A DNA stretch of 57,274 nucleotides, the filler included, from Sphacelaria rigidula (taxonomy: Eukaryota), in the NCBI GenBank assembly GCA_964200075.2. It is 5 parts of 5 records of this genome, joined end to end, with 100 filler letters (N's around TTAATTAATTAA, not from the genome) between each part and the next. Parts side by side here need not be neighbours in the genome. Positions count along the whole stretch, not along the records: positions 22,952 to 34,326 come from CAXNAA020005002.1; 4 more parts are not named here. One strand, written 5' to 3'. Shown here piece by piece: positions 12,633 through 34,326 of the stretch. The notes below the pieces were generated by a model. It was given only the letters and a program-made list of their open reading frames with translations. It ran no database searches and was not told where the DNA came from. A program made the position numbers and the translations under genes. Numbering within the stretch: the first letter of the stretch is position 1; every line of letters starts with the position of its first letter.

Positions 12633-14452
12633 CTTGGGGTTTTGATCTCGGAGTCCTCTCCAACAACACCGTCGTCCGCTTTGGAGACAGGGCTGGGCTT
12701 GGGCCTACCACCAGCAGCCTTAGGCCTGGGACTCCTCACGCGCGGTTGAGAGTCAGCGCCGCCCTTTCCTGCTGCTTCCGCACGCTTCGGCGTAGTAGCA
12801 GATACTGGCGTGGCCGCCCCACCCCGCGGAGGTGCGGGCGCACCCGGCCTGGCGGGAAGATTTGGCTTCCTGTGTTTCTCACCCGCCGCCACCACCCCTG
12901 GCCTCGCAGGAAGTTTTGGTTTTGTTTTTAGCGGGGTGCATGAGGAGGGTGACGATGATGATGATGACGACGACGACGCAGCCTTTTGAGGCAGCTTAGA
13001 TGCAGCCGCTGCCGCCCCCATCACTCCAGTCGCCTTTTTTGGGTGCTTCGACCCACCCCCTGACGGCTTCGTATCACTTGTTGTTGATGTGGTGGGGGTG
13101 GTCGCGGTGGTTGGTTTTCGCATGGGCCGCGGCGATGTTGGCCGCGGCGAACCATGAGACGATTTCACCGCTGGGGGGGAGGGCAGCGGCCGCGACGAAC
13201 TGTCACTGCTCGATGCAGGAGGAGGTGCGGGTTTCTCATTCTCAGTGTTCAGCAAGGAGTTTTGGCCGATTGGCTGCGGCTGCGGCTGCTGTGGTACCTC
13301 TTTACGTGAAGGCAGCAGGGGGTTCTGGCCGCGTGGTCGCGATTGCGGCTGCTGTAACACTTCTTTACGCGCAGGCACCAAGGGGTTTGGACGGCGTGCT
13401 TGCGGCTGCGACTGCTGTGGGACCTCTTTGCGTGCAGACGCATCACGTCCAGCATCGGGAGCACCGCTACCACCACTACTGACCCCCGTCAATGAGCGTC
13501 GACTGCTCCCCTTGCCCCTTCCTGCGCCCCTAGCAGCGGCACTTCCACCTCTACCTCTTTTGTTCCTGGTGGTATCATCATCACCACGTCCTTGTCCTCG
13601 TCCTCTCCCTGCATCCCGTACGGACAAGTGTTTCCGTCTCGAGCTGCCACTGCTGTTCGTGCTCCCGCTGAAGATGCTGCTGTCGTCCACGCTATCTTGG
13701 GGCGTAATTGTACCGCTACCACCCCCCTCATCATCGCCACCACCGTCGTCTCGGCCTGCCGCACCGCTATCCGCGTTGTCAAGATCGGCCTCCAAGCTCT
13801 TTCGCTCCAAACTTTTCCTGCGGAACAGCTTGGATCTTCGGCCGGGGCCAGGGGTCGCCACCAACGGTTCTTCGGCGCACACACCGCCAGGAGCAAAGGC
13901 TGGGCCATCTTCGGCGGCGGTAGAGATGGCGGAGGTATTGTCTTGCCTCACTTGATCTGCCACCGACGATGCCGTCGGCGTGATCGAACCGCCGCGGTTC
14001 GCCGAACATAGATCCCACGACGACTCCCATCCAGAGTCCGCCGATCTTCGACTAGAGCCGCGTTCGCCGCCGCCAACGCCGTTACATTTTCCGCGTTCGC
14101 CGCTTACTTCATCACCGGGACTTCCTTCGCCGCCCCGGCGGCGGCAGATTGGTGAACGTGACGACGGCGGGGAGACTTTCGAGGTGGATCCGGAACTGGA
14201 CCCTGTGATTCTCCCGTTCCTTTTCACGTCGCCAGGGGAAGAGACTTTGGTGGGTGAGAAGTTCTCGCTGTCTTTTTTGTCAAAGTTGTTCTTGTTACTG
14301 TCTTCTGACGTTGGGGTTGCTCGGAGGATGGATGGTGTGCTACCGTTCGACAATCGGCGGTCGTTTTCGTCATTGAAGATCTCGTCACTGTCACTGTCGC
14401 TGTTGCTGTTGCTGTCGTCATCGCCGCTGCCGCCGCCGCCACCGCCGCCCGC
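12633..14452 (-). CDS. 1820-bp exon encoding ~606 aa of S/P/G/R-rich, probably disordered sequence
   Basis: Open frame with ATGTCCAG| acceptor and AAG|GTGAGT donor; GC-rich; contains a 3x21-aa repeat and PxLPARP motifs. Confidence 0.8.
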
Positions 14453-16498
14453 CTGGACATGAGAATATATCGGTATGGTTGAATGACAAAACAGATGGAT
14501 AACGGAGATGCGCCTGATACGAACGAATCAGTAATAATATAGAATACAAGAAGTGTAGAGTGTGCCTAGATGGCTGCTACTGGTGGGCGGGTACTATGAT
14601 CAGCTACTGAGGCGACGTACAATGGTTGAAAAAACCACGTGCGATCAACGTGCATGATGTGTGAGTTACGATGCGGCAGGACGTGAAAATAACAAAATAA
14701 CCTCGTGTTAGGAAGAAACACACCACACACTGCCCAACTTTTCAAAGATAGAATAATCTGACAACTAAGGTGACAACGAGACTTTGAGAGGCTCGATTGA
14801 CCGGCCTGAACAACAGTACACAACCGTCAACTAGCTTGCACCATTACACACGACTCAGGGGCGGTGACGCTTGAGGGTCATGTTCGTGTATTGCTGCTTC
14901 CAGTGCATCCAATCAAATTTAAGTTCACCGTGCGAGAGCAGGAGCTACATGTCCAACTCGTTGATGGGGCTTGTTCACCTTGAGGGCGGGAAGTGGGGTA
15001 ATATCTATCATCAACGGCCGTTTGATGGAAGCCAGCGGACTACGGAAGTGCCTCTTCGTACCTCGACATGGGAGTGCAAAGCGGGAATGAGACGGGTTGA
15101 TCTCTTGAGACAGCGGGTATCCCCTCAGGGGGGAATTCGGAGAGGGGTTAAAGGGAGAACAACCCCGTTTACACAGGATAAGGAGTAGGTACGATAATAG
15201 TGGAATGCACTATGATCCAAGTCACAGGCTCCTGGGGAAGGGGTGACGCCCCCCTCCCCCCCCCGAGCACAGAGCATTTGAACCCTCTCTGGATCTCAAA
15301 AGGGACAGCGAAATGACGAAATGACAGTACGACTGTACTGTACTACAATCAGCACAACATCACAGTTTTGTTCGGTACACGATGAGGTACAGATTACACA
15401 GCCAAGGGTGACGAGGAAGCCCAACCTCGATTTTATCGTACACAACGACGGCCATGCTTTTTAAAGCTGTGCCATCGGAAACACTGACAGCTTCCGGGAA
15501 AGGAGGTGTTCCAGTAGTTCGGGGCCTTGTGGATATACATTTTTTCATCTATACATGGAGTGAGATTTCGGTTCTCATCTCCTTGGGTGATAATCCTTTA
15601 TGCTCCGTCCCCTGAGTTACGCTGCACGAAAAGCACATGGGGTACATGTTGCTACTCCTTCAGTACAGTACGACGTTTGCAAAATGATTCCAACATATCC
15701 ATACAATACACGTACTTTTGTTTCCTGCTCATCGCGAGAAATATCAGGAGTGTTGTAAGATACGAAGGAATACGTGTTTGGCCGAAAGGTGTGCAGCAGC
15801 CTTTTCCCGATGTATCTATCCCAGTTGCGCGTGCTGACCTCGTTGTAGATGCATGTCACAAACACAGCTGGCGCAGTCACCGATGCTGTTTTGACTGTCC
15901 TGAGACAGCAATACTGTTACCCGCGGCTCTTGAACGGGTAGTTACGACGTGCGATCTATGCGTGATAACGGCCTTTTGTATGGAGGCGTCGTCGCTATAC
16001 AAAAAACAACTATTCCGATCTCCGCTTCAAAGCCTACCTGTTGTTTAGCGTGCGACCATGGTCCGGGGTGTTATGTTCTCTCTGGAATTTTACCGCAACT
16101 CTGATAACCGTACCGTTCTGAGGAAAACTGAAAAAAAAACATCCTGTCGTCGATAGTTAAGTGCAAAAAGCGTAATTGCCACGCCTTGGCTTGTGTAGTA
16201 TATCGTTTCAGCAATTACCGCGCCCTTTAATGTTCAATAACTATCGAACATACTATTTTTTTCCTCCTCGAAATAGTACCGACACCCTGTACTTGTTGAT
16301 CGATTCATGTCCGAACCACAGACTCTAATCCGTTTTCCTCGTCATTTCTGGTTCAAGTCTAGGGCGAAGTCACCAGTGAATATGGACTACAGTGCAGCTA
16401 GCGGCGCGGTGGGGATTTGCCGTCGCAAACGCCATATTGTATCGCGTGTACTTTTGAGAATAGATCCTCCGAGGATTCGCGCAAAAAATGCTCAACGA

Positions 16499-16778
16499 GT
16501 GTTGCCATCCCATCTATCCTGGACAGCAGCCTACACCTTTCGATATACTCGGGGACATCAGCCGGGGTCGCACAGGACGAAGGCCACGTCAGCAGTTTGA
16601 TTTTTTTCAGTTCGTTTAACTTCTTGACCTTCCTTCTGCGGTGCTTGCCTTATTTTTCATCACCAGAGGGTTCACGATCCCTTTCCCTCGTTGATCCTGA
16701 CGTCGACTTTTGTGTACCCACGGCACAGTCGCTGTCCACAGTTGTGCATGGTGCGATAAAAAAATCCCAGATCGTGTG
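16499..16778 (-). mobile_element. tRNA-derived SINE body
   Basis: Reverse-complement match to 11477-11752, stopping at CACACGATCTGGGATTTTT next to where the head would be. Confidence 0.8.
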
Positions 16779-17047
16779 GGCATGACCATGAGGCCGTGTC
16801 TCATCAACTTTTCATCGACTTGAACGAGTTCGTGTAGCGGAATCGATTCAGTTCGCTTTGCCGTGTTGGGGTCCAAGCGGATTTTCGCGCTTCGGATCTA
16901 AAAAGCTGAGCGGGATTCGCGAAGTAGTATTAGTTTACATGTATCTATATAGACAGTACAGACAGTATAGTAGTGCTGCCTGTAATGTCTGCATCTTGTG
17001 TGTGTTTCGTACAGCATGAGGGCGCGATGTGGAAAAGAAGCGGGCAC

Positions 17048-17128
17048 CGTGGCCGTGAGATAGCTAATCTTCCTGCACTCTAGAGCATCGTAGTTGGCCT
17101 CCATCTCTGCTTTGTTCATCCTTTGTTC
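17048..17128 (-). CDS. Candidate small exon of the PB1-like gene
   Basis: CCAG|EQRMNKAEMEANYDALECRKISYLTAT|GTGCCC; 81 bp; weak donor. Confidence 0.4.
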
Positions 17129-17794
17129 CTGGTAGTTTCTTTTTTTTTTTTGTCTGTTTTTGTTTCGTCTGTGCTTCCTCCCCCCCGCCGTCGGAACGAG
17201 CCTGGCTCTTTCTTCTTGTCTATTGTTTTCCTTTTTTTAGGTTCTACTATTTTTTTTCTTCTTTTTTTCTTTAATTTTTTTCATGATTCTCCTTCTTGTT
17301 TCTGATCACGAGCTGGAGTGTTGCAGTCAGCTACGTAATGCGCGATCATCATCTTTTTTTGTTGTTCGTGCTTGTGTTTGTCGTTATTTTTGTTGTTGTT
17401 AGCGCTGCCCCCTTTTTTTCCTTCCTGAGGCCGTTGCTTCTGTCGTTTCCTATTCCTTTCTTATTTATTTTTTATTATTCTGTTTTATTTTTTGTTGCTC
17501 CTGACCACGGGCTGGATTGTTGCAATCAGCTAGTGTGAGATAATCAGTCAATCGATCACTCTTTGCACACAGGAGGATATGAAAAATATGCGAACCATGT
17601 GCAGTTTTGCACTGCCTCTGCTGTCCATGAGCGTGTACGCAACTTTGTAGCCCACCCCAACACGCAAGTCTGTCTGTGGAAATCAACACAAAATCAAATG
17701 CCCAAGTTTTCGTCAACAAAAAAAATGAAAGTGTCATGCCAAGAGGGTGGTGGTGTCGTTTCCCTATCACTGAAGGGTTGAGTTGGTACTATAC

Positions 17795-17856
17795 CTGCGA
17801 ATGAACCATCTGGGCTTTGCATAGTTCTGTGAAAGGGTGCCAAATAGCATGGATGT
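17795..17856 (-). CDS. Candidate small exon of the PB1-like gene
   Basis: TCTTGCAG| ... CAG|GTATAG; 62 bp; reading frame ambiguous. Confidence 0.4.
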
Positions 17857-18096
17857 CTGCAAGATGGGAGTCATGTGCCCCTTTGTTCGTTTCCGACGCT
17901 TGTTTTCATCCGAAAAAAAGCTAAGCTTCTCTGTTTTTCACCCTGCCCGTCGCGCGCATATAATTGTAAAATGGACTTGAAGTCATCTGAAAACGTAACT
18001 GCCGTGGAGGTATCAGATACGACCTAATTACTAATTACGACCATTTCGATTCGACCGCGTGTTTTTGAGTCCCTTTTTTTTTACAAGACACGGCCT

Positions 18097-18164
18097 GATT
18101 CGAACCCATGACCCAACTTTCAGAAGGTTTCGAGATTACCAGCTGAGCCACCGGGGCGACCGGC
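18097..18164 (-). mobile_element. Isolated tRNA-like SINE head (Pol III A/B boxes)
   Basis: Minus strand GCCCCGGTGGCTCAGCTGG (A box) ... GGTTCGAATC (B box); same head as 24720-24807; no acceptor stem, so not a tRNA. Confidence 0.75.
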
Positions 18165-18384
18165 CCTCAGTATGGTCGGTATATTGTAGTCCAGGACGGT
18201 GAGTTCATGAAGCGCTATTAATATTCAATACTGCATTCACGAGCACGGTGTGCCGCACAGCGAAGCAGCGAACGGTAGAGCCACGGCGCCCCTGTCACAG
18301 GTGAACCGTTCAGGGGCCCAGCCGTGCTGTTATCCGCTGTTCATGATGGAGCCCGTAGCCGTATATGCAGTGCCGTGTGCGTAC

Positions 18385-18498
18385 CTGAAGATAACCGCCT
18401 GAAATTCGATGCAAACGAAGATGAGCTGCTACTTCATCGTATGTGCAGTAGAGTACAAATTGAACAGCACTTCCAACAGATACCACTCTGTATAGACC
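18385..18498 (-). CDS. Candidate exon of the PB1-like gene with a frame conflict
   Basis: TTCTTCAG| ... CAG|GTACGC; in the incoming phase it reads RVYTEWYLLEVLFNLYSTAHTMK-TAG. Confidence 0.4.
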
Positions 18499-18583
18499 CT
18501 GAAGAACAGGATACGCGACAACTACATGCTATAAATTTACATCCCTTTCCGTGTGTCCGCTGTGGGTGTCTTGTCACTCATAC

Positions 18584-18858
18584 CTGTATCTATCCCAGCT
18601 CTGTTCAAGTATCCGTCTCTTTCTCACCTCCACCACGGCCAACAGGCAGACCTTCGTCATGGGCAGGAACAGCTCACGGTTGAACGTGCTTTCGTCGAGT
18701 GATACCAACGGTTGTGTCTTCGGCGAATCGCGATAGCTCAGCTTCTTCAGAGGGACCAACGGGTCTCCTGGGGAAGACTGGAGGGAAAACTGTAGGGTAG
18801 CCATCAAGCCTGGCAGATCCGTGTCGTAATTGACCAGTGTTATCTTCCGGCACACCTC
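18584..18858 (-). CDS. Exon 3 of the PB1/ubiquitin-like-domain gene
   Basis: AAGCAG| ... CAG|GTATGA; reads EVCRKITLVNYDTDLPGLMATLQFSL...KKLSYRDSPKTQPLVSLDESTFNRELF; in phase with exon 2. Confidence 0.75.
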
Positions 18859-19424
18859 CTGCTTGACGGTCACGAGAAAGCATGCAACGTGGGACAGCAC
18901 AACTGTCGACTCAGTCAAGAGACGGATCATTTGTATGACACGTACTACTGTGCTGTACCCTACCGTACACTACCGCGGCGTGGACCGCAGAAGGCGCGTA
19001 GAAGTTGACCTGCGGACGCGGGCGTCGGAATGTTGCGGTTCGCCCTCTGTTCATGTGTAACTTGAAACCGTATAACCGTATGTTTCGTACTCCGTACGAG
19101 TACCTGTTTGTAGAGCAGTTTGGCACGTATTTCTAGTAGAACAGCTCTACGGGTAATACGATAGTGCTACCATGATGCTGCTTCTTCTGTACGGTTCACC
19201 AGATATAGATTATCCGGTATCCCGATAATAGGGGGGGCCTACCGTGTTGCCCATGACATGCGTGCTGGCGGACCACAGAGAAGAGGATATAACAGCATAA
19301 TAATATTCTCTCCTGGGAGGCGGTATTTCTAGAGAGCAAACAATGCGCCAAAACTTGAAGCCTAGACCAACCGCACTAGAATACCGTACACCACCAACTG
19401 AGATATAGGATAACGAAAACCCAC

Positions 19425-19527
19425 CTTGCCATCCGAGCGCTTGACAATCAGCTTGGTTTTTCGGTTGTACCCTGTCAGGGAGCCGCGAGTGCTGCTAGAC
19501 GCTGTCGAGCCTGAGCCGCCGCGCCGT
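19425..19527 (-). CDS. Exon 2 of the PB1-like gene
   Basis: ACACAG| ... AAG|GTGGGT; phase 2 in, 0 out; reads RRGGSGSTASSS...TKLIVKRSDGK. Confidence 0.7.
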
Positions 19528-20283
19528 CTGTGTCCCGGAAACATACCAAAATTTGTCTAGAGCTTCAAACGGTGCCGTGCGGTGTCTAAAGTAGCGCGTT
19601 TATCCTCACGCGGTGTATACTGTATGATATCTATAACGAGGAGGTACAGCAGCTTGAGACAACTACTACGTGGCCCCGGTACTCGCTACGTTAGATACTC
19701 CCTCTACTACGGGACCTACTGTAGCTTACTATCGATATTGAGATTGTGCTCTCTGTCCTGTCTCTTGACCAAGATAAATGATCAACGGGCCGTAAGGCAT
19801 GACTATTATTCGATTGAATTAAGTGTCAATATGTGGGGGTTTACCGGGAGCGAAAAAACACTGCTACTGTATTGTCAATCTACTAAGCTCTCTATTCATC
19901 GCTACTGCCATGCGGACAGCTTTTACTCGCGCACGATTCGTACGTAGTGTTTAATCGTCTTCGTAAAATATAAGGTATGCGTATTTGTTCTTCGCGGGGC
20001 ACTCACAATGACCGCGGGCTCATCAGATTTTAGTCTGATGTGATGGCGAGCGAATAAATCTCCATTTCCCATAAGTTTCGCACACTCCTGAAAAACACTT
20101 CCTGCCTTCTTTTGTGAATGCCACAAAAGACACCTCAAATAGCATTGCGTAATATCATTGTACTGTTAGCGTACACGGGTAGACTCGACGGAGCTAGGTA
20201 GAATCCCTCCTGTTCTGTTGTATTTTACGGGGCGCTACTGCTATAGGACCAAGGGCTGGAGAAAAAAGCGGGTGAACTGATAC

Positions 20284-20429
20284 TTTGCGCGGACAGAGCC
20301 GATGGCAACCTCAAGCACTTCTCTCTTGAGCAACGGTGCAGCTGCTTCAGCGGCAGTGATAGACGAAGAAAGCAATGCCCTGCTAGAGGAGGAGCCCATG
20401 CCGTCGCATGGAACTGGTATCGGGCTCAT
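20284..20429 (-). CDS. Probable first coding exon of the PB1-like gene
   Basis: GCAAAC-ATG start; reads MSPIPVPCDG...IGSVRAK; AA|GTATCA donor in phase 2 matches exon 2. Confidence 0.65.
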
Positions 20430-21567
20430 GTTTGCGTCGTCGAAGCTCCTCGCAAGGGCAAGCCGTAATCGAAGGTGCGAAATGCATTTATGCGTACGAG
20501 TTGTGAGAAGGAAAAATATTTCATCTCGTGGGACTGCGAAGATTTTCTTTCCGGTGGTATCAGAATGGCGACACGAAGTATGATGATGAAGGTTTGACTC
20601 GAAGACCAGATATAAGACATGCTTCTTTCCTTTATCACTGACAGGGGGCGCGGGAGGAGTGGAGCAGGTGACAGATTATCGACACCAGAGGCTTTATGTG
20701 CTGCATGTTTTTTTTTGTTCTCCAGGCGTGCATGCCAGCACAATGGTTGCTTACCGACGGTTGCTTGCCGAAGGTCTCACGTTCTCGTTCGCCATTGCAA
20801 CAACTCCAGTTGTACTAACAAAACTTACAGAACATTGGCATTGACCTGTGACAGCATGTACTTGTAGACAGCACTACTGTAATAGTGCCGCCAGTTTCTA
20901 CGGCCCATCCAACCGCACTCCAGCAGGTTATTGCATTCGTACCGTGGCGCCTCTTCCAGCAAAACACAGCGAGAGTGCCAGCAGCGTGATTATCGTTACA
21001 CTGCATGTCCCACGTATACGTACCCAGCGAGGACAAGAGAAGGACAGGGTGGAGCTTGTAAGCTCGCAAGTTTTTTCAGCCGTCCAGTCGGTTTTTTGTG
21101 CAGTGAAACTTATTTTTGATTGATTATTTGATAGATCGACACACTACCCGTAGAGAGGTGTTGTAAGTTTCTCCTCGACACGAATCGAATGTACGTCGCA
21201 TCCCGTGATGTTTCGGGTCCTGTTCGGGATTGCCGCCGAACAGCTCCGCTATTAATACGGTACGTTTGATGTAGTTGTGAAATCAAATCTAGCGCGAACT
21301 GATGGCAGCACAGCACGTACATGCAGATTTACTGCAACCGCCGCGATGCCGCAAGAGCAGTAGCAGTTGATGAGGGATTTTTATTTTCCCGGTAACCCTA
21401 CAGCTAGGGTATACGGAACACACAACGATACTCAGCACCCCTTTTTGACAGAATCCTTCTCCTACGGGGCGTCCTTGACGTGGACTTGGGCCCTTCTTTA
21501 GTGGAGTTGTCTATATAATCCATGTTTCATATCCCGCACAGACATCGAAACGGTTTTTAATGTGAGG

Positions 21568-21596
21568 ACAACAACAACAACAACAACAACAACAAC
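21568..21596. repeat. (ACA)n microsatellite
   Basis: About ten perfect ACA units. Confidence 0.95.
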
Positions 21597-22519
21597 GTAC
21601 TTAGATAAGGTGCGAAGCAGAACCTGCCTTCGAGCTTTCTATTATAGTTTAAATCATACATTCTGGAATGTTCTCTCCATCTTCGACCTGAAGTAAAAAA
21701 GACTTGAGCTGCCATCAGGTCGAATGGCCACCGGAGCTGGATCAGGCACAGCAGGGAGCTTTCCGCCTCGTCACTTTTTTGTTTATCCGTGCCATAAGGC
21801 CAGGTTCTAGGTTTACCCTGTAGCAATAGTGGAGTACGAACAGGAAAGGGTTTCAAAACTTTCCGTCTTAGGGCGGAACAACTTTACAACTGGTGACTCA
21901 TTTCGGTGATGCTCGCCTAACCATCTGCTCTCAATCCGAGCGCACTGCTTTCCCATCCAACTACGAGTAAGGTTATGTGTGAATGGTAGTTGGTATGTAT
22001 CGTGGGTGTCCTGCACGCGATGCTGCATGCCCGGACGTGTCAGATTTCGCACAACCGCACAGTACAACAAGTACAGACAGTTTCGCGCGAAAAAAAATAT
22101 ATATATATATATATATTTCGGAACAGAAAATGATCTCCTTTCATCCCCTCGCGCCCTGCTGCAACGCTCAACCCCAGCTCTGGACGCATGAACTTGTTGA
22201 TTGTGGTCTACGGGAGATATTAGCGAAGTTTCAGCACATAGTAGAGACGACAGCGCGCGCACGACCGTGCCTCCTGACCTGAGCATGTCTACAACAGTCG
22301 ATACCGAAGTGGCTTTTCAACAGATTGTCATCATCCAGAGGCGGCGCCAAAAATCTATGTTGTTTTCTAGCATCGCAGCCTCCCAGGTTGTCATGATGCA
22401 GGAGGGAGTGCGCTACCATGTCCACATATGCATTCACTCATGGTGCACAGAATCTCGGCCACGAGATGGCCGTTTCTAGGGCATACAGACGTTATTTCCC
22501 ATAATCGGATTTCGCTCAA

Positions 22520-22611
22520 CCCTTAGACCGCGAGGTGTGTTGAATCGGCATCAATTTCAAGTGAAAAAAAAGTATACATGGTCCAGAGAGATTAATCTCG
22601 CGGTCTAAGGG
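22520..22611. mobile_element. 92-bp piggyBac-type MITE
   Basis: Perfect 15-bp TIR CCCTTAGACCGCGAG / CTCGCGGTCTAAGGG; flanks TCAA and TTAA. Confidence 0.8.
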
Positions 22612-22851
22612 TTAACCCTTTTGGGACTGGGCCTCCAGAACGACCAACGAGGCTGGTTAGGAATGACGTGTCCTGCGTATACATGAAACAGTGGCTTCAT
22701 GTTCCTAAAAATCAACAAATGTATGTAACGGCAGGCTTGGAGGAAGGCCGAAAGTTTCATCCAACCTCTTTTTAGGTACAAACTGTCTGTACTATAATTC
22801 GGGTGTCGTGCGCATCAGGCAATGTACAGATGTATCAAGCAGTATCAGTCG

Positions 22852-22951
22852 NNNNNNNNNNNNNNNNNNNNNNNNNNNNNNNNNNNNNNNNNNNNTTAAT
22901 TAATTAANNNNNNNNNNNNNNNNNNNNNNNNNNNNNNNNNNNNNNNNNNNN
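22852..22951. other. Artificial 100-bp contig spacer
   Basis: N44-TTAATTAATTAA-N44. Confidence 0.99.
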
Positions 22952-23207
22952 TGGTGGGGGGGGGGGGGGTGGGGGGGGGGGGTGGGTGGGGGGGTCCGAT
23001 TCTACTAAAAAATGTGCTGATAGACGCGTCAAACGATCTCAAACACTCGCGGTGCGCTTATATTTGGGTACAAGCGGTGTAAAGCAGTAGGAATGAGCGT
23101 TATTTATTGGGAGCCAGCGCTTTCGAACAGCTGTTGCCTGCTTTCAACGCGATTAACGTGGAATTTCGTGGAAAAAACGGCCAAAAATACCCCCCCCCCC
23201 CTATCGT

Positions 23208-23338
23208 TTTGCTCCGTCTCGAAAGGGATGCGTGGTCAATGGTCAAACGACTAAGGCAAGCAACAGATGAGTACGCCCCCCTATCGTAGCGAGGTCAACG
23301 GTCTTATGACTATGGCATGCATGATCATGAGTACACCC
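23208..23338 (+). mobile_element. Two stacked 5'-truncated oligo(C)-tailed retroposon ends (type A 23208-23281, type B 23291-23338)
   Basis: Layout C12-TATCGT-[A]-C6-TATCGTAGC-[B]-C3-TATCGTAGC. Confidence 0.8.
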
Positions 23339-23464
23339 TATCGTAGCTTGACTCGAGGACAGATATCTTAGCAAAAAGAAAACAGTGGTTGTATTCGTAT
23401 GTCTGGAGTGGTATACTCCAAGACTGAGACATTTCCACGGCTATCTTCGCCAGCAATACTCCTA

Positions 23465-24237
23465 CACACGCGACCATTCGGCTACCCCCATAAGAAAGAA
23501 CCCTCTATCGCGATTTTCATCCTCTTGAGGATAAAATACTATACCCTCCAGATGATATTTTTGTTTTGTTGAGATGTCACAGATACCACTGAGCTAAACA
23601 GTCAGCGCTGATTGTTTAGCTCAGTGGTATCTGTGGCATCTCAACAAGAACTAATCTCGGAGCCCTTCAGGCTGTGAAGGCATCGGACCCACTTTCACCC
23701 CAGGGTTGCCATCCCTGTAATCAAGGCAAGCTTATCCGTGCTTCTTCTGATCGAGTGACGTACTCCCTGTCTGCTCGCGTTCCGGGAGGCTTACACCCCG
23801 AGTACCCCGAAAAGAAAGAATCGGCCTGATGGCTCAATAGCCTGAAGGGCCTAGGGGTTAGCTTTTGTGTAGATGTCACAGATACCACAGAGCTAGACAG
23901 TCTGACTGTTTAACTCTGTGGTATATGTGACATCTTAACATTTTCTTCCCCAGGTGCGGTCATAAACGAATCGTCTGGAGGGCATCTGATGCTCAAGTGA
24001 CTTCTGAGGTCTGAATCCCTCGAGAGTACAAAAAAGGTGGTGCTCTGCAGGGCCGCGCATCCTCCAAATTCCTCCGGGGGGATGCGCGACCCTCCAGAGG
24101 CAAAACAACCCTCTGGAGGCGTTTGATCCCGCCCCTCTGGAGGACCGCGCACCCTCTGGAGGCGTTTCACTCTTCTGAAGGCTCGAAAAGTTGACCGAAA
24201 CAGAGTATTTCGGGGGCTAGCCGAATGGCCGCGTGTG
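23465..24237. mobile_element. TA-flanked MITE (Tc1/mariner-like), family M3, with a nested foldback element
   Basis: TA|CACACGCGACCATTCGGCTACCCCC ... GGGGGCTAGCCGAATGGCCGCGTGTG|TA; same TIR as 31886-32238; internal CCTCyrGAGG palindromes. Confidence 0.8.
23566..23940. repeat. Foldback element with palindromic termini
   Basis: 82-bp near-perfect palindrome at 23566-23647, related 65-bp palindrome at 23871-23935, and inner inverted arms GCCCTTCAGGCT / AGCCTGAAGGGC. Confidence 0.8.
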
Positions 24238-24555
24238 TATTAGCTGATGAGAGCTCAGACCTTCGGGTCGAGTCGCTCTTCACCGCGAACACTTCGATGC
24301 CGACTGGGCTCGCTGAGGAAGCCGGATATTGGGCATACGGAGTGAACCCATTCACTATTTTTAACCAACAGGAACGCGTTTCGGGTGTAAAGCCCGCAAA
24401 ACCTGCACCAATACGAACACGTCTCGAATGCAACACATTTCCCAGCTGCCGTCTTGATGAAATTTTACGTTAGTCGAGGGTAGTGGGAGAGAACGCCCCG
24501 GACCCTGGTCCCCGCCCTTGAGCGCCAAGGACCGAAAGAATATGTATATGCGTAT

Positions 24556-24807
24556 TGTTGCGTGCTGTCATCCCACCCTCTTCCTGCGGCACTTGCCTCG
24601 TTTTTTATCGCGAGAAGGGTTTATGTAGGGGCCCCTCTCCCTCGTCGCCTGTAAAGTAGTACTTCATGTACTCATCAAATAGTCACTCTCCACTGTAGGG
24701 CATGACGAGGGAAAAAATCCCAGATCGTGTGACTTCACCGAGATCGGGACCCTCGTGCCAAACGTCAGAAGGTTTCGAGGTTATCAACTGAGCCAAGAAA
24801 GCGACCG
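24556..24807 (-). mobile_element. tRNA-derived SINE with head and internally deleted body
   Basis: Links the head (TGGCTCAGTTGATAACCTCGAAACCTTCTGACG) to the CACACGATCTGGGATTTTT body. Confidence 0.75.
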
Positions 24808-26284
24808 CCTCCAACATAGATTGCTTTTCTTAATCTCAAAATGACCCTTTGCATGTGGACGAGTTTAACGATTGGCAACTCCTTACGGTGGCTGTCTGTC
24901 GTGAGAAAATGTAGCCCATGGTGGTGGTCGTTCGATTATGATGCATTGTTGCACCACAACGATGATTTCGTCATCTACAATAGTATGACATAGCTATACC
25001 TCAAGCTCGAGGTTCCCCATATATTTGACAATAGTGTAGTGTAAAGTAGACCGGGAGCCTCGAGTTTGAGATACGATGAGTAAAATTGCTTGGTTGCATC
25101 CATTCAGAGGGAACCAGGACGAGGAATGATGCTTATTCCTGCCGTACCGTGCAAATTGTATGCACAGTACTCAGTTGATGTAGCTGATCAGCACAATCAT
25201 GATGAGTGCAATACGTGAGACCTCGAAGGCAGAATATCTGTCGAGACCATTGAAATCAGTGCATCAAGCCAGTACCAGCAATACCAAGCAACATCAGTAC
25301 ATATTTGCCTCCCCCCTCTCTAAGATCAAGTGACCTGCCTCAGCTGTCATATTCTGATAGCAGGTTGCTTGATCAACGTGTGCTCGGTTCAAATAACTTT
25401 CGTCAGAGGCATCCTACGAAATGGGTAGGAGGGTGGGGATTTTGGGACGTATCTTCCGCGAAATGACACTTCATATCGCCGTTCAAACCAGCAACGTATG
25501 TTTGAACGCGCTTGTTAGCAATGAGACACAGCCATTCATACTGCTTGACACCGTTTTCACCCGAATACAAAAGGACCGCGAGTGTGTCAGGTCGTCTTGC
25601 ATAACTACCGTCCCCTGGTTTCGTGGAAACAAGCATCCCCCCCCCTGTTATCGTAGGATCACTCCTCAGCTTGTTTGACATCAAGTCACGTGTTTCGCCC
25701 CTAATCCGTTCCAGTAGCTTGCCTCACCCGCTTCAAGTTCAAACAACTTGCCTCATCTACCAAGTATCAACTGCAAGAACGTCAAGTGGCCTGCCTCATC
25801 CAGTATGGTATCGATTGAATTGGTTCACATGTACTCAGAGTAAGCAACCCGCCCCCTCTCTTGGATCAAGTAAGTCGTTTTCTACAGGAGTTAGCGTGGC
25901 ACTACTAGCTCTATAGACGACTGAGTAGCCCCCCTCCCCTCCCCCCCTGGAGCGCCGAAAATGAAAAAAATGACGAGAGAGTCCGGGGTGTTCTTTATAC
26001 TACCCTTGGCTAGTACGGGTGAGGGGCTACACAATACATGGTGTGTTGTCATTGGGGTTGGTAATCGCGAGCAAAAAAGAGGTGCTCTGCTAAAAAACCG
26101 TCGGGTTAACTGGCATTGACGATCCACAGGTGATCTTGTGCGAAGAAGAGGTCTAGTGCTAAATCACACGAATTCAGGGTGTTTTGTTTTTGCAGCCGGT
26201 TTTCGGTGCTGGAAGTGGCCAACTTTCGATATAGACATCTCCTTCGTTTGATCTCGTATTCCCGATTCTTTGAACCATTTCTTG

Positions 26285-26405
26285 CGTGTGTATTTATTAT
26301 CCCATCCATTCTGGACGCCATTCTACACCTTTCGGTATATGTGAGCGCACTACCGGAGGTCACGCAGGAGGAAGGTCAACTTACGAGGAGTCTTTTGTTA
26401 TTTTC
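26285..26405 (-). mobile_element. SINE 3' fragment
   Basis: ATCCCATCCATTCTGGACGCC...ACACCTTTCGGTATATGTGAGCGCAC...GGTCACGCAGGAGGAAGGTCAAC matches the SINE body. Confidence 0.7.
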
Positions 26406-27754
26406 ATCACCTAGGCCCCCAAAATTCGGTTTTCGGAATCCAAATTTGTATACCGTGTAGTAGTTATTAACAGCTACCGGTAGGTGAAGGAGCACAACCA
26501 CATTTAGAAGAATTGATGCGGATACGAAGATTTCAATTTTCTGGTTCATCTTCCTCCATGATGAGCTCCATCCTCAAGTTTTCTATCTGCTGTTCATCGA
26601 CGCGTTCGGGTGATTTGGGAAGCGGGTTCGCAGTCCGAGGTCGAATGAAACTCGAATGTACTCCCGCGAGACGTTACGCCTCACCACACCATTGTCTTTG
26701 ACATATTTACTTGGATTCAGCTCGGGACACAGTGTCAAATCTATACCCCGTTCTCAACCTACACCTGCCTGATCATCTCTTGCTGTATTGCCCTGTCAAG
26801 AGTATTCAGTGTTTTCCTGCGCAAGAGGTGTGGTGGGCCCAGCCTAAAGTGCCTGCGAATGGCCACATCTAGTCATACTACTGTGATGGAGTTCGGACCA
26901 GCCCTGCCCTGCTGCTGCAGCCACAGCAAAATCTCAATGACGCTCCTCTACATAAAATACCATCGGACCGAGTACGTTTTGCTTCGCTCCGCGGTAAAGT
27001 ACACTATCGCGGTCCTTGCCATGGTGTTACGAAGTACGGGTATAGACAGCGAAGTTGTATATATTGGTATCTACATTTTGTTTTTTGGTGTTCCAAGCAC
27101 TAGCGGAGGGCAGGCTCAAGATGGAGATCCTACAGGACTACGTGCCCTTCAATGAAATCTCGCTCGCGACGTACGTCTCCTCTGAATCCTAAGAAAACTC
27201 TTGAGCAAGAAAGCCACATTTTTTTATATAAAAGGGTAAACCGAATACTAGACCAACCCCGCCCCCGTCAACCTCCTTCATCCTCCCTGAATTTCACGAT
27301 AAACGCATGTATTTTCGACTAAATGTAGTCCAAGTTGTACTGATGAAATGAAGTGATGGGAACGCTCACTGCAATCGCATATCAATGATTAAGGCGTCAA
27401 CCGCTGCTCCCTCGCGTGGCAGCGCAGAACGTCTTATTCAAGCTTCTTGGAGTACTACCATCCGGAATTGGAGTCAGATTGCTTTCATGTTTGCCTGCAT
27501 CTCGGTGGTTATTATCTCCCTCTAGCGACGTCACATTGATACCAAGTAGTGACCTTAGGCTACCAACAGGTAGCTTATTCTCCCGAAACATCTAACTAGA
27601 CTGAGCTTTCGTAGGTACGCAGAAGATTCTCAGTGCAACTTGTGTGCCAACCTATGCGCATATCCTGCTGTGTTTCAGGCCCTTTCTGCCCCGTGGTCGG
27701 CGTGTCAACATTCAACAGCCGGTTGACGGGATGCCACCTAATCAGCGACACCTT

Positions 27755-30094
27755 ATGATGAGACGGAAGGGCTGGATCGCCACACTTGTTCTGCTCGGGA
27801 TATTCTGCACTGGCGTAGCTTCCGCTCCTTGCAGCAGCAGCGATGCCTCGCATATCTGGGACGTTAAGGATACAGCATCAGCCACAGCCCTGGCTGTCGC
27901 AGTAAACTGCTCTGGTGGGGTGTTCAATGTCAAATGGACAGGAAATGTCGTCGTAGAGCGCGAAATCCATGTAGCGAGTGGAACTTCCCTCAGTGTAGCT
28001 GGAAGTAATTTGGCAGCCGGGATGGAGGGGAGTGGAAATAATCGACTTTTCAACATCGAAAACGCGTCCTTGAATGTGAGCAACATGACCATCAGCAACG
28101 GCCATGCGGCCTTTGGCGGGGCTATCGTTTGTCAGCGCTCAAGCATGTCATTCGACCGGACCTCTTTCATCGATAACGTCGCCGTGGAGGGAAACGGTGG
28201 AGCTCTCCATGTCGCCGACAACTCGGTCGTTTCGTGGAGCGGTCTAACAGCGTTCGTCGGCAATAACGCGTCTGATGGTGGCGGTGGGGCTTTCATTAGT
28301 GACAGCTCCAGCGTCTCATGGCGAGGAAATTCGTCGTTCTCCAACAACACTGCTCACCAGGGAGGTGCTCTCTATGTAGAAAACAACTCCAGTGTCTCCT
28401 GGGAAGCGGAGACATCGTTTGATGGGAACGCTGCAAACTTTACAGGAGGCGCCTTGAATGTGTACAATGGATCAACAGTATCGTGGGGAGCGGTAACGTC
28501 ATTCTCCCGCAACAGCGGACAGTGGGGCGGAGGCGTGCATGTCGAAAACAACTCCAAGGTATCCTGGGAAGCGGAGACTCTGTTCTCAGGCAATCACGCA
28601 ATATTCGATGGCGGTGGGGCTGGATTGGACGTCTACGACGGTTCGAGCGCATCGTGGAGGGCGTTGACTACGTTTATTGACAATAGTGCTCCAATGAACG
28701 GCGGCGCGATACAAGTCAACGCCGCCTCGGTATCGTGGGAAGCAAAGACTGATTTCGTTAGAAATTCTGCAAACAAAAGCCACGGAGGTGCTGTGTTCCT
28801 TTACGAGGGCGCTAGTGCATCTTGGACACGGGAAACGAACTTTTGGAACAACAGCGCGGTGTCCGGGGGTGCCCTCGCTTGTATCCGTTCTAATGCATCG
28901 TGGGAAGGGAATACGTCGTTCTCGGACAATAGCGCTGATGATGGTGGGGGTGCTGTGTCCGCTAGCGAGAGTTCTCGTGCATCTTGGGAGGCACAGACGT
29001 TGTTCATCCGCAACTCTGCAAATAAGTTTGGGGGTGCTTTGAATATCTACAATAAATCCGCTATATCGTGGGAAGGGAATACGTCGTTCTTGGACAATAG
29101 CGCTACTTATGGGGGTGCTGTGATCACTAGCGAGAGTTCTCGTGCATCTTGGGGGGCAGAAACGTCGTTTATCGGCAATTCTGCAACAAATGGTTCTGGA
29201 GGTGCTTTGAATATCTACAGGAACTCCACCGTATCGTGGGAAGGGAAGACGTCCTTCTTCAATAACAACAGCTCTGAAGGAGGGGGAGCAATTTACGCAA
29301 TGAACCGCTCCTATGTGTCTTGGGGAGCAGAAACAGAGTTCGCAAACAACTCAGCAAATGAAGCGGGCGGCGCCGTGCTTGTTGAGTACGGCTCCAGCGT
29401 AACCTGGGGAGCAACCACGTCCTTTTGCAACAATACTGCAGGTAAATCGGGCGGCGCTGTTTCGCTGTCGTCGTCAAACAGGAACAGTGAGAATATCATG
29501 TCGTCCATCATCATCGACGACTCCACGACCTTCGTCGGGAATAGTTGTAACGCTAGTGGAGGGGCATTGGCACTTGTCGGCGTGATAAACACAAGTTTCG
29601 GGGAAAACCCCATGACGTTCGATCGTAATTCTGCGGACTTTGGTGGAGGGGCAGTGTTTGTTGCAGGCTTAGGGACTGGGCCACAGTTCATCGGTGCTAC
29701 GTTCACTTCGAACTCTGCGATTATAGGCGGAGCGGTGTCCGTTACAGGTAGCGGAACGGCAGTTACGAACTATGAATTCGTGGCTCCAACCACCTTCGAC
29801 CAGTGCCGCTTTTCCCATAATACTGCCGAGTTAGCAGGCGGTGCGGTGGACAGCGGAGCAGGTCAAGACAAGTTCACCAATACATTTTTTCTCGGCAACT
29901 TTGCACAAGCTGGAGGAGCTTTGAGTCTCGCCGGTACGGCATCCATATCCAACTGTTCATTCGTAGAGAATATGTCGGCCGAAGACGAAGGACCAGCAAT
30001 CTCTAACGTGGGGTCGATCAGTATCACCAACAAGACTTCCTTCGACAGCAATGCCTTCGACTGTGAGCGTGGGACTTTCCTCAACTATAGCACG
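27755..30094 (+). CDS. Secreted polymorphic-membrane-protein-like (GGA/FxxN beta-helix repeat) adhesin-like protein, first large exon
   Basis: 822-codon ORF; signal-peptide-like MMRRKGWIATLVLLGIFCTGVASA; ~15 units of GGAxxxxxxSxxSWxxxTxFxxNxA; ACG|GTGAGG donor at 30094. No downstream exon recognised; alternative ATG at 27731. Confidence 0.9.
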
Positions 30095-31885
30095 GTGAGG
30101 ATTAACATTTGATCGCAAACATCTACAATGGATTATACCGTGTTCTGAGTACATTGGCAACATGTAGTCTTCAGAGCTTTTCGATACATTGGTCAAAATT
30201 AATATGCTGCATAATAATATACTATCCCTACTGTTGCCATCGTAAGCTGAATATGCATATGTTATTGTCCATTTTTTCATGATTTGTACATGGTGTCCGA
30301 ATACAACGATTGAGGAAAAAAGACGGTATGGCTGTTGCCCACCGCGGCGGCATCACACTCCCAACTGGGGATCAGACCACTAAAATGAATAGTCTTCTCA
30401 GCACCGACGGGTTATCTGCCAGAAAACTATAGATCCGAAAGAGCAATTCCGATTATTCCGCTGTTCATTCCTGCATTTTTCGTGGCAAAATATGACGTTG
30501 CGATAGTGCGAAGCTGACCGTCAGCGACCAGTGCTGAGCTCAATCATGGAAAGTGACAGCTGAGATGCCGTACGAAATACGGCAACGTTACGTCGTACTA
30601 ATACCATAGGTCGAGAGCTGTGAAGTGAACCAGTTGATGCCGTCGGCTAAACTGGGAGTGGAATCGAAGTGGAACTGGCGACGAGGGCGCCAGTTATCCA
30701 GTTTATTCGAGTTTTGCCGTTACCGGCTATATTTGTACCATTTATAGTGTGTATCATATAGCGACGATGCCCACATCAACATACATAACTTAACCGTCCA
30801 TACAGTAGTATAAACATTATACAAATGTTTAGGCTTTACCTGTTAAGCTAGTGAAGTCATTTTTTTATGCTAGTAATCTCACCAAAAAGTATGCTCGTAA
30901 AGTGACATTCATGCTTGCATATATGCTTGCATTTTCAAATCAAGTATGCTCGATTTATGCCCGCAAAAAGGATTTTATGCTCGATTATGCTCGTAATATC
31001 CACTAAGGATACTATTTTCGACCGGATGCAGACCCACCGATCACTAGTAGTTATTAGTATTATTATGTTCGTCACCTTTTTCGCTCGATCTCTCGAACCC
31101 GTGGTCACAGAGTAGAAGGAGCATAGCACCCATACCCATAAATCAAGCAGCCCGTAGAGGAAGGCAAACTAAACATCTACACGAAAAAAAGGGCATACTA
31201 CTGTGTATGCATGTTATATATATATATACGAAGTACTACCTATACCTGCATTAGTACGATTGAATGCCGTATTTTCCGGTTGTCGTACACGATGCACCGT
31301 TGAATATCATCGCGCACTCTCTGTCTACATCTTGTGCTTGCCGCCGCCTAACTGCCGTATAGATAAGACATATGACAGGCAACTTGCTGATTCGGATATC
31401 CATCACAATCTGGCACAATGAGTGTACGTTGTACGCAGCTCGTCACCACACTCGAAATGACAGGTCACGAAACCACATGATGTCTTCACCCGCCGCCTGT
31501 TCCATGTCAAGGAACTCGTGTCCAAGGACAACAAACGAAAAGCTGACATTCGATTGATGAATGATTATTAGATAGATTGTCTTTCATGAACCGATGTCGG
31601 TTTTAATCCAGCGGAAGTCGCAAGATGGGTACAGCCCAGGAAGCAAGGGGCAAAAAAGAAGACACACAAAGGGGTGGAAATTGGGGAACTGCTGGAGTAG
31701 ACAAGAAGAGGTCAGTGGCCAGAGAAAGTACAAAGCCAAAACACGCAAGAGAAAAAAATGGGAAGGCAAGATATGCTGCTGTGCTGCGTGCTGTACGCTG
31801 TACGCCGTGCGCTGTGTACTACCGACTACAGGCTGAAGAGCACGTTGTACGTGTTTATGTTTTGTGTCGTGTGCTTTCATGAAAA

Positions 31886-32238
31886 CACACGCGACGATTT
31901 GGCTACCCCCAAAATTCCTCTAGGTCGGTCAACTTTTCGAGCCTCCAGAGGAATTAAACGCCTCCGGAGGGGTGCGCAGCCCTCCAGAGGAACGTTTTTG
32001 GTTACCTGCAAAGGAATTATAACGTCTCCAGAGGCTTGTTTTGCCTCTGTAGGGCCGCGCATCTCTCCGAAAGGATTGTGCTACCCCCAAATTCCTCCGG
32101 GGGGGTGCGCGGCACTTCAGGTCGGTAGAGTGTGGCTTCCTCCAGAGGGGTTAAAGGCCTCCGGAGGCTTGTTCGGCTTCTGGGGGGCCGCGCATCCCTC
32201 CGGGGGCATTTTGGGTGGTAGCCAAATGGCCGCGTGTG
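31886..32238. mobile_element. MITE family M3, short copy
   Basis: TIR CACACGCGACGATTTGGCTACCCCCAAAA / TTTTGGGTGGTAGCCAAATGGCCGCGTGTG; repeated CCTCCrGAGG motifs. Confidence 0.8.
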
Positions 32239-33235
32239 AACGTTTATCAGACCTGCGATCGATCAGATTGGCAGTTTGAATGACTGGTTCTAGAGCGTAC
32301 ACGTATTCCAGGCCCGCGGTCGATGCTAGCAGAGTTTTTCGCCCAAAATATCAGAGCAGGCTAGCATTTAGATCCTTTTCCCACCCCTACGGTGAAAACG
32401 TATGCTGGATTATGCTCCTAATGTGGGAATTATGCTCGATTATGCTATTTGCTGAAACGCTATGATATTTATCCTACTTGCTCAAACACCATGCTATTTA
32501 TGCCATCAAGGTGGAATTATGCCAGAAATTATGCGACCACAAAAAGTAAAAGCCTGAAAAATATTTCAACTTCGCACCCTATCACAGTCCTGGTTTCTCG
32601 TCCTCGGGCCATAGCGTGTAGGTCAACGGCTGGTCGATCGAATGAGGAAAAATGAAAAAGGAAAACAATATTGACCGAGATCCGGTGGCACGCTTGATGC
32701 GCACCTGCCAAACGCCAAACCTCAGTTACCTACCATTACCAATTGCGTGGTGAAAAGCGATGTGGACATGATGTGACACACCACGCCTCGAAGTGATGGG
32801 GGCGGACTTATGCCAAGGTTTGTCGCTTCAATCCACATCCAAAAAACAGTAACAAACGGTGACACCACAATATACAAAACACACCATGGCTTGCGATTCA
32901 ACTTGATGCGTGTTTTCGTTGCGGAGATGAGAATTTTGCGCCTTTTCCCCACTTGCTGCCAGCCCTTGGCTTATTTTTTCCCACACTCCACTCGTGGATA
33001 ATCTCTGCCGCTCCATACTGCAGATGAGTGATGCTGCGATATCCTACCGCGGGGATACTAGTTCTCACCGTGCCGTACTGTAGCGACAATCGAGTAGGAA
33101 TAGAAAGATGTGGTGCATGCGTTGTGGAGAATGGTGAATGTTACGAATCTAGATTATACAGTCTACGAGCTTCCCCTCCGGGAGGTTGGTATGGGCTTCC
33201 CGGGGGTGGCGCAAGTCGATGATATATTTTGTCAA

Positions 33236-34326
33236 GGTTTCCACGATCTTGAAGTGGCTTTTGTGGATCGCGATCTACACCCCGCGGAAAAGGGCCAGTT
33301 TGAGCGACTTTCGGTGGCCAGAACACGCGCCACAGGTATCAGATGACGCCCAAACCTGAACGGTAATAATGTACCGCTGAGCCTTCTCAGTGCGCTACAA
33401 AAGAAAGCGTGGGAAAAAATGCCTTGCCGCCAGAGAAAACTCGGCAAAAGTGGTGAGAAATGTGAAATGATACATGTACATGGTATACATTGCGCGTAAA
33501 AGCACTGACAGCGCTTGCACGACCTCGCCTCCCGAAGTAAGCACCTCTACAGGCGATACCAAGATACGTACCGCGTATAATAACATCATCCAGAGTGTGC
33601 CCAATACGGATCGATGCTTGTTTGCCGGGGCGGGAGCCACCCAGCAGGTCATCATGTGGAAGTGGCGATGGCATTGCCCAAAATCCGTATTCGCTCCGTG
33701 CGTTTGGCGTGCCACGTAAAAATGTGCCGCCGATCCGGGAATATGCTGTCTGTGTTATGGTCTACCTCTGTGCCAAGTTTCAGGCTGATTCGTTCAGACA
33801 CGGCCGAGAAATCCACAAGCAAAGTAACCCTTGACTTGTACCGAAAATACAGTATTATTAAGCCGTCGAAAGACACATGAGGTGCGTACTTGAATGATTC
33901 TTCCTGTCACCCCTGTCACGAGGACAAACCTGTTATCCCTGTCACAAAGACATCCCACAGTGGGGACGTTTGCCCACTTGTGTGCCTTTTTGAACTCATC
34001 AACGGCTCATTTCACGGTCTTGTGTTTGCTGCTGACTAAGAGCAAGAAGGCAATGTTCAATTGTTGTCAACTGCATTGCTCTCATGCTCTTGTGACATTG
34101 GCGGCATACCCGGTGTGCTCGTGCTCCAAAATGGACCAAAACCCGATAAAGAAACACGGGGGGGAAATACCCCGCCAACAATCATCCTACTGCTCGAAGT
34201 TTTTCATGAACTTGGGAAGGCTTCTGTGGTTCGGGATCGACACCCCGCGAAAAAGAGCCAGTGTGGGCGACTTTCGATAGCCACAACACGCGCCACAGGT
34301 TTCAGATGCCACCCAAACCTGGAAGG
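33236..34326. repeat. Two diverged direct copies (~125 bp) at 33236-33363 and 34199-34326
   Basis: Shared ACACCCCGCG.AAA.G.GCCAGT.TG.GCGACTTTCG.T.GCCA.AACACGCGCCACAGGT.TCAGATG...CCCAAACCTG. Confidence 0.8.

Follow-up and report, generated by a model that had tools for sequence, protein, structure and literature searches.

Which kind of mobile element leaves several copies, one behind the other, at a single run of cytosines? The question is raised by positions 23190-23347 of the window, as we call the whole 57,274-base stretch of Sphacelaria rigidula DNA analysed here (five pieces of ~11,375 bp each, 56.9 kb without linkers; features are not traceable across the piece joins). At this locus, a run of twelve Cs is followed by two related sequences, type A and type B, each of which ends in a shorter C run of its own and is flanked by direct repeats. 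We consider it highly probable that both types are 5'-truncated copies of a C-tailed long interspersed nuclear element (LINE) and of its short partner, inserted by target-primed reverse transcription (TPRT) beside C runs.

Two insertions stacked at one C run

A first-pass annotation of this DNA had described the locus as a C12 run, TATCGT, a 74-bp type A end and a 48-bp type B end with direct repeats, and this layout is confirmed. Its parts, together with a third clean insertion found elsewhere in the window, are:

23190-23201 (+): C12 run, the target
23202-23207 (+): TATCGT, upstream copy of the target-site duplication (TSD) of the type A insertion
23208-23275 (+): type A end, 68 bp, a 5'-truncated LINE 3' end finishing in GTACG (nhmmer E=1.2e-19)
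23276-23281 (+): C6 tail, which brings type A to 74 bp
23282-23290 (+): TATCGTAGC, of which the first 6 nt are the downstream TSD of A and all 9 nt the upstream TSD of B
23291-23335 (+): type B end, 45 bp, 5'-truncated, finishing in GTACA (nhmmer E=1.1e-13; 93% identity to 11376-11332)
23336-23338 (+): C3 tail, which brings type B to 48 bp
23339-23347 (+): TATCGTAGC, downstream TSD copy of B
47477-47535 (+): third clean insertion, consisting of C11, ATAGGAAAAA, a 23-bp type B end (47498-47520), C5 and again ATAGGAAAAA (nhmmer E=1.2e-5)

Since the target sequence is present three times at 23190 (TATCGT and twice TATCGTAGC), the stack must go back to two separate insertions, each with its own TSD. 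Two orders are possible: B may have entered at the C12 run first, with A following on the preserved C12, or A may have come first and B then entered its C6 tail. Clean TSDs that open in a long C run are found in three of the nine copies of the family in the window, at two sites (23190 and 47477), and extend 6, 9 and 10 nt past the Cs. In these three cases the run upstream is C12 or C11 and thus longer than the tail runs of C6, C3 and C5.

Nine copies with a common 3' end

A profile built from the copies had nine matches in the window, with E-values from 7e-80 to 1.2e-5, and no others at E<=10; copy coordinates were refined with blastn and by direct reading of the sequence. The six copies besides the three clean insertions are:

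8079-8286 (+): type B, full length, with a 206-bp body (8079-8284) and CC; no convincing TSD; 84.7% identity to the minus-strand copy at 6711
6711-6501 (-): type B, full length, body 6711-6506, C5 tail 6505-6501; same 5' end as the copy at 8079
6497-6280 (-): type A LINE end, 210 bp (6497-6288) followed by C8 (6287-6280)
7074-7010 (-): aberrant type B fragment (nhmmer 7074-7019, E=5e-7, profile positions 117-172), then C6 (7015-7010)
11376-11326 (-): type B end, body 11376-11335, C9 tail 11334-11326; 5' side lost at the end of piece 1
57274-57213 (-): type A end with a CC-TT-C8 tail; 5' side lost at the window end

Eight related ends had been claimed for this stretch (6280, 6501, 8140, 11325, 23208, 23291, 47498, 57213). 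The profile recovered all of them and added a ninth, 7074-7019(-). The count therefore stands, with the qualification that two of the copies (11376-11335 and 57274-57224) run into piece ends, which hides their 5' junctions, and that clean, run-anchored TSDs accompany three copies, not all.

All copies share one end and differ at the other. Their bodies measure 23, 45, 68, 206, 206 and 210 bp, leaving aside the two that are cut and the aberrant one, and in all nine, as well as in the coding relative described below, at least two Cs follow directly or almost directly past the 3' end; in the copy with the tail at 6287-6280, three extra bases (TCG) precede the Cs. The exact motif ATGAGTACRCCC occurs four times in the window and in none of 100 shuffled versions; with up to two mismatches it occurs 14 times against a shuffle mean of 7.2, which is not significant. 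A search for inverted-repeat pairing found none among the nine copies.

The fragment at 7074-7010 stops past ...GTAGGGACGG and runs straight into its C6, so that the final ~55 nt of the family are missing. Candidate explanations are an internal deletion, an older subfamily and initiation at an internal site.

Type A is the 3' end of a coding LINE

The window itself holds 3' ends of at most 210 bp, and a Pfam search of its 120 open reading frames (ORFs) detected no reverse transcriptase (RT) and no endonuclease. A degenerate pattern spanning both subtypes, scanned against a prokaryote genome collection, matched two contigs, L002 and L001; an exact 21-nt type B stretch had no match in the same collection. 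L001 was dropped as a chance match, as only the two short anchors are found in it, within ordinary bacterial sequence.

L002 is a public contig of 5,259 bp, filed under a metagenome-assembled genome (MAG) of an uncultured bacterium. On its minus strand, a type A end lies directly behind an ORF of 1382 aa, which contains Exo_endo_phos (residues 193-415, E=8e-11), Exo_endo_phos_2 (E=1e-7) and RVT_1 (763-1012, E=7e-32) domains as well as a C-terminal Cys/His motif. The arrangement that characterizes LINEs of the apurinic/apyrimidinic endonuclease (APE) type, an AP-like endonuclease followed by RT in one ORF, is found here on L002, and its RT matches the structures of L1 ORF2p (E~2e-21) and of R2. 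The first-pass annotation had made its reading depend on an RT-encoding master with this 3' end, and one indeed exists.

The ORF end reads ...AAATGAGTACG followed by C13; the stop codon is the TGA inside ATGAGTAC, after which come a G and the C13. With the stop codon within 8 nt of the element end, the "3' untranslated region (UTR)" amounts to ~5 nt plus the C run, so that the conserved type A end is coding sequence. The three type A copies of the window align to the 3' end of L002 as follows:

23210-23281: 97.2% identity over 72 bp
57274-57213: 93.5% identity over 62 bp
6497-6280: 79.9% identity over 219 bp; 61% over 57 aa in tblastn

From these alignments, the type A copies appear to be 5'-truncated copies of an autonomous APE-type LINE that finishes in GTACR and a C run. 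The traits by which LINE insertions are recognized, a fixed 3' end with variable 5' truncation, TSDs of variable length and no terminal repeats, are all seen in the family, the TSDs in three of nine copies and the other six being ambiguous or cut.

A search with the L002 protein gave 215 proteins at E<=0.001 among 5,585 candidates scored. Because its relatives are a protein with 89% identity in ENA data and named Ectocarpus proteins with 55% and 48%, the contig is most likely algal DNA despite its MAG label. On the 5' side of the ORF (L002 4360-5259) there are ~60-bp tandem-like units rich in A and C.

Type B resembles a short interspersed partner

The two full-length type B copies, 8079-8284 and 6711-6506, start from the same base, upstream of which the two cannot be aligned. 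Similarity between type B and the L002 LINE is confined to the last ~50-58 bp, at 78-84% identity; tblastn with the LINE protein found no match to type B. As to the origin of the remainder, a tRNA scan found no genes, and Rfam searches in E-value mode over 6200-8400 (E<=10) gave four chance-level matches (E 2-8), none of them on the elements. Judged by the strict definition of a short interspersed nuclear element (SINE), with a head derived from tRNA, 7SL, 5S or small nuclear RNA and an internal RNA polymerase III promoter, type B is not a SINE. It does, together with type A, show the homologous 3' tail of "stringent" SINE/LINE pairs. We therefore describe type B as a probable 206-bp non-autonomous, SINE-like partner carrying the tail of the LINE, presumably mobilised in trans by the LINE protein.

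C runs as targets

The insertion sites stand out against the composition of the window, which contains 16 C/G runs of at least 8 nt. In 200 first-order Markov simulations there were 1.0 on average and never more than 4, so that the excess is ~15-fold; seven runs have at least 11 nt. A/T runs of at least 8 nt number 20 against ~3.5 expected. Three of the 16 C/G runs are themselves element tails (6280, 11326, 57213) and two are occupied targets. Several C runs sit in other repeats; those at 52203 and 53577, for example, belong to two copies of a single family.

All three clean insertions follow runs of C11-C12. As only ~16 of the ~114,000 strand positions come next after a C/G run of at least 8 nt, it is, by our own arithmetic from the run counts, very unlikely and far beyond chance that two independent clean sites should both fall on runs of at least 11. 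The composite insertion at T|CCAAAC, described below, does not follow such a run, and five copies are not scorable. In a search of the window for further C-run-anchored TSDs, none stood out beyond the three known; what else it returned were 6-8-mers behind CCC or tandem repeats in genes.

The target C12-TATCGTAGC is the right end of a repeat, R, which spans ~23000-23210. R is ~250 bp long and resembles a miniature inverted-repeat transposable element (MITE), with inverted ends that follow the pattern ATCCTACGAWA-(G run) ... (C run)-TWTCGTAGGAT. It has copies at 22952-23210 and 25400-25660, the former opening with G14-T-G12-TGGGT-G7 at the piece edge. The latter copy (25400-25660, minus strand) carries no retroposon and serves as an "empty-site" comparator. 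One of its ends reads, from 25637 on, C9-TGT-TATCGTAGGAT. The other, which corresponds by homology to the filled site, has a C-rich but interrupted stretch and then TTTCGTAGGAT. Where the C-rich part meets the TCGTAGG-type sequence, this paralogue has TTTCGTAGG and the filled site TATCGTAGC. Since the uninterrupted paralogue has a junction of this type, the junction predates the retroposon insertion. As far as empty sites could be judged, the expectation that they would carry C runs is borne out by the paralogous site with its C-rich, interrupted stretch; only two target sites are clean.

A second stack at a target without a C run

On the minus strand at 6280-6717, a type B body (6711-6506) is followed by C5, ACG, the 210-bp type A end (6497-6288), C8 and GTGC. 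Type A thus starts, at 6497, 3 nt behind the C5 tail of B, and the hexamer CCAAAC flanks the whole B+A unit (6717-6712 and 6275-6270). As the unit sits at T|CCAAAC, a long run is not an absolute requirement for insertion. The single flanking CCAAAC and the lack of a TSD belonging to A alone suggest that the unit is a chimera made in one step through template switching, with the RT leaving the LINE RNA and continuing on the 3' end of a B RNA; this explanation is post hoc and concerns one locus. If it is right, the C5 at the junction came from the RNA of B, and the target offered no more than CC. The case would then speak for a C tail carried by the RNA and for a long run as a preference, not a requirement.

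Mechanism and alternative explanations

From the junctions we infer a course of insertion that comprises the order of the nicks, priming by oligo(G):oligo(C) pairing, a C run on the RNA and a preference of the endonuclease. The bottom strand would be nicked within a G run, which is the C run of the element strand, or at its edge. The oligo(G) so freed could then pair, at its 3'-OH end, with the oligo(C) in which the RNA terminates and prime cDNA synthesis, and the top strand would be cut 6-10 nt beyond the run. Such a course would yield a TSD that opens with Cs and would often truncate the 5' end; it would also leave the upstream run intact and place a second, shorter one at the new tail. With one run preserved and another added, the site might be hit again, and copies would stack.

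The retroposon origin proposed at the outset finds support in the lack of pairing as terminal inverted repeats (TIRs) among the nine copies, in TSDs of 6, 9 and 10 nt and in the RT-coding L002. Several points weigh against the fuller account given here. At the B+A unit the target T|CCAAAC has no upstream C run, and neither full-length B copy nor the aberrant fragment has a convincing TSD. The coding LINE comes from a contig outside the genome of the window, and the 5' end and TSD of that copy are ambiguous, the candidates for the TSD being GTTGGGG and GTTGG, neither of them behind a long C run. The LINE belongs most likely to the RTE-X group, an assignment based on shared features, host group and the Ectocarpus annotation; three RTE-X features annotated in Ectocarpus (single EN-RT ORF, that is, endonuclease and RT; (C)n 3' end; C-rich TSD) are present here, and searches of PDB structures and of the Atlas did not separate LINE clades. 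A 3' hairpin predicted in common for A and B is weak (8 pairs, one compensatory change, -3.3 kcal/mol) and falls in a region that is coding in type A.

A further point is that the C tail could come wholly from the target. The element would then end at GTACR without an oligo(C) of its own, all later Cs would be target or TSD, and an endonuclease that prefers the edges of G/C runs would suffice without priming. In none of the three clean cases does the tail run (6, 3 and 5 Cs) exceed the upstream run (12, 6-12 and 11 Cs), so that the tail Cs could all be TSD, and the Ectocarpus table has the wording "(C)n termini/TSD" for RTEX-2 (PMC12477816). Against this stand three observations, each ambiguous: in the B+A unit, C5 separates B from A, and C8 with GTGC precedes CCAAAC, while the upstream flank offers only CC; L002 has C13 with no long run before either candidate upstream TSD; and the Ectocarpus consensus is annotated "(C)n 3'" (PMC12477816). 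On balance we regard a purely target-derived tail as unlikely. That the ends belong to a DNA transposon or MITE, with the direct repeats as a fixed-length TSD, may be practically dismissed. The target at 23190 does lie inside repeat R, whose inverted ends carry G/C runs. Yet the TIR pairs and fixed TSD length that the first-pass annotation had named as grounds for abandoning its reading did not appear, as none of the nine copies has an inverted partner and TSD length varies; moreover, one end is fixed and the other variable, and the copies correspond to the 3' end of an ORF that encodes RT.

Template switching by RT is known from U6/L1 chimeras, and stacks might be single events of this kind, in which the RT leaves the LINE RNA and takes up the 3' end of a partner RNA as its next template, with no repeated hits on a recreated target. 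This fits the B+A unit, where one 6-nt repeat surrounds both elements and A lies close behind the C5 of B; the chance of a 6-mer recurring there is ~0.002 by our own post hoc estimate. It cannot explain the stack at 23190-23347 with its three target copies and two TSD-making insertions, and as a general account of stacking we find it doubtful. Type B could also be the 3' end of a second autonomous LINE family, whose two 206-bp copies were truncated alike by coincidence. A head without tRNA or Rfam counterpart would be in keeping with this, as would the strong 5' truncation of three of the five alignable B copies, which is more LINE-like. The opening of both long copies at the identical base between unrelated flanks speaks against it, as do the lack of protein similarity to the LINE ORF and the existence in Ectocarpus of short partners, 188 and 607 bp long, whose heads are unknown; we think it improbable, slightly more so than a target-derived tail. 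Going beyond TPRT beside C runs, which remains our preferred reading, these elements may represent a run-specific LINE lineage, a G:C mirror of L1, in which endonuclease and priming both select G runs, the RNA has a template-encoded oligo(C) and the family multiplies its own targets. Such multiplication would help to explain the excess of C/G runs. We offer this extension tentatively, as a possibility that falls short of an even chance.

Comparison with known elements

The closest parallels are in Ectocarpus. The paper on its mobilome (2025, PMC12477816) gives RTE-X as the most abundant LINE group, with 7 families, 16,418 copies and 3.41% of the genome, and describes RTEX-N1 as a non-autonomous element of ~600 bp with >6000 copies, whose 3' end is common with autonomous elements. 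In its table (PMC12477816 MOESM3), RTEX-1_Ec32 (5867 and 5511 bp in two subfamilies) is entered as "single EN-RT ORF; (C)n 3'", and RTEX-2_Ec32 (5582 bp) in the same words with "(C)n termini/TSD". RTEX-N1_Ec32 (607 and 604 bp in two subfamilies) is entered as "5' head unknown ... can be present in tandem", with its 3' 60 bp 83% identical to RTEX-1/2, and RTEX-N2_Ec32 (188 bp) as "could be SINE"; for all four the TSD is C-rich. In N1 and N2 the 3' 60-100 bp are common with autonomous elements at ~83-87% identity (PMC12477816).

By these table descriptions, the Sphacelaria elements resemble RTEX-1/2 and N1/N2 in their brown-algal host, single EN-RT ORF, (C)n 3' end, C-rich TSD, short partners sharing the 3' end and tandem occurrence. 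They differ in species, in belonging to a diverged family (55% identity to the best named Ectocarpus protein) and in the length of the partner, 206 bp as opposed to 188 and 607 bp. The hope that C-tailed retroposons with C-rich TSDs and tandem partners would prove new has therefore to be given up, these traits being already annotated for Ectocarpus RTE-X LINEs in that source. The main text of PMC12477816, in its accessible part, contains no discussion of C-run targeting or priming. A limited literature search found no mechanistic treatment of C-run priming or of target feedback, though the spelling "poly(C)" may have been missed, and the RTE-X/RTEX literature retrieved, part of it in excerpt, does not describe the tail.

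Compared with human L1 and Alu, there is the same pairing of an APE-type LINE with a non-autonomous partner, a tail complementary to the nicked strand, 5' truncation and a variable TSD. Whereas L1 and Alu have a poly(A) tail, a T-rich nick site and a TSD that opens with As, the tail here is C; it is thus not a product of polyadenylation and must be encoded by the template or derived from the target. Type B also shares ~50-58 bp of 3' sequence with its LINE, where Alu shares only poly(A), and, unlike in L1, the ORF extends nearly as far as the 3' end. The 3' UTR is typically very short in the RTE class, which the present LINE also resembles in its single ORF with APE and RT domains. RTE and RTEX are grouped as the RTE superfamily in PMC11203168. 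The likeness to RTE-class LINEs does not extend to the tail, as the Ectocarpus RTE families, which have a single EN-RT ORF, terminate in (CAA)n instead of (C)n; for CRE the terminus is (CA)n (both from PMC12477816).

The common tail of types A and B resembles the "stringent" recognition in LINE/SINE pairs that is described in PMC3747384. Microsatellite-specific APE-type LINEs likewise insert in simple repeats and carry a 3' tail corresponding to the repeat they target; of these a 2013 review, in its accessible sections (PMC3812793), lists Waldo (ACAY), Mino (AC), Kibi (TC), Koshi (TTC) and Dong (TAA). Their targets are di- to tetranucleotide repeats; here the target is a C/G run, and the preference is not absolute. 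No element that targets C/G mononucleotide runs is named in those sections of PMC3812793.

Other content of the window

The window has a GC content of ~48%. Its pieces and the linkers between them are:

1-11376, 11477-22851, 22952-34326, 34427-45800, 45901-57274: pieces 1 to 5
11377-11476, 22852-22951, 34327-34426, 45801-45900: linkers, N44-TTAATTAATTAA-N44

Besides the negative result for RT and endonuclease, the Pfam search matched a Chlam_PMP repeat protein and the integrase zinc domain of a long terminal repeat (LTR) element; a match to a PH domain (RHG20_PH) remained below threshold, with 20.7 bits against a cutoff of 27.7. An Rfam search of the whole window returned nothing at gathering scores. 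The largest ORF, 27605-30112 (+), encodes the Chlam_PMP-repeat protein (835 aa, intron-free). It belongs to a large brown-algal family, with 417 relatives at E<=0.001 among 7,999 candidates scored. Its closest named relatives are from Sphacelaria rigidula itself (60% identity over 48% of the query), followed by proteins of Hapterophycus, Ectocarpus and Laminaria (35-41%); the exact protein is absent among its matches.

Just downstream of the stacked retroposons lie two near-perfect, mutually related palindromes, which may be foldback or MITE-like elements. Piece 4 probably represents a degenerate LTR retrotransposon of >11 kb, as its ends carry direct repeats that are 96.8% identical and it includes an integrase zinc-binding domain. 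These presumed LTRs open with long G runs (G19 and G18), in which no retroposon is inserted. Two further repeat families were found, one MITE-like with copies of ~300 bp that are 72-82% identical and have inverted termini of ~45 bp, the other of unassigned type.

23566-23647: palindrome, 82 bp, 95% self-complementarity
23871-23935: palindrome, 65 bp, 89% self-complementarity
34480-34574 and 45706-45800: direct repeats at the ends of piece 4
40282-40794 (-): integrase zinc-binding domain, piece 4
2079-2377, 5007-5314, 35972-36270, 54949-55254: MITE-like family, 4 copies
11477-11751, 16499-16778, 24572-24731, 26280-26403, 55944-56169: dispersed family, 5 partial copies, 69-83% identical

Implications

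The elements are a further brown-algal case of a known kind, with features already listed for Ectocarpus. What they add is detail at the level of the junctions: three clean TSDs, a paralogous empty site, an ORF that runs into the terminal motif and a possible template-switch chimera. They thereby provide a second brown-algal example of LINEs with a C homopolymer where L1 has poly(A). As a C tail cannot arise by polyadenylation, such elements offer a natural test of the relative roles of tail-target pairing and poly(A)-binding factors in starting TPRT. For genome annotation, they explain short repeats flanked by oligo(C), and tandem stacks of them, in brown-algal assemblies. Each insertion leaves the target run in place, and the elements may in this way also be a source of the many C/G runs in these genomes.

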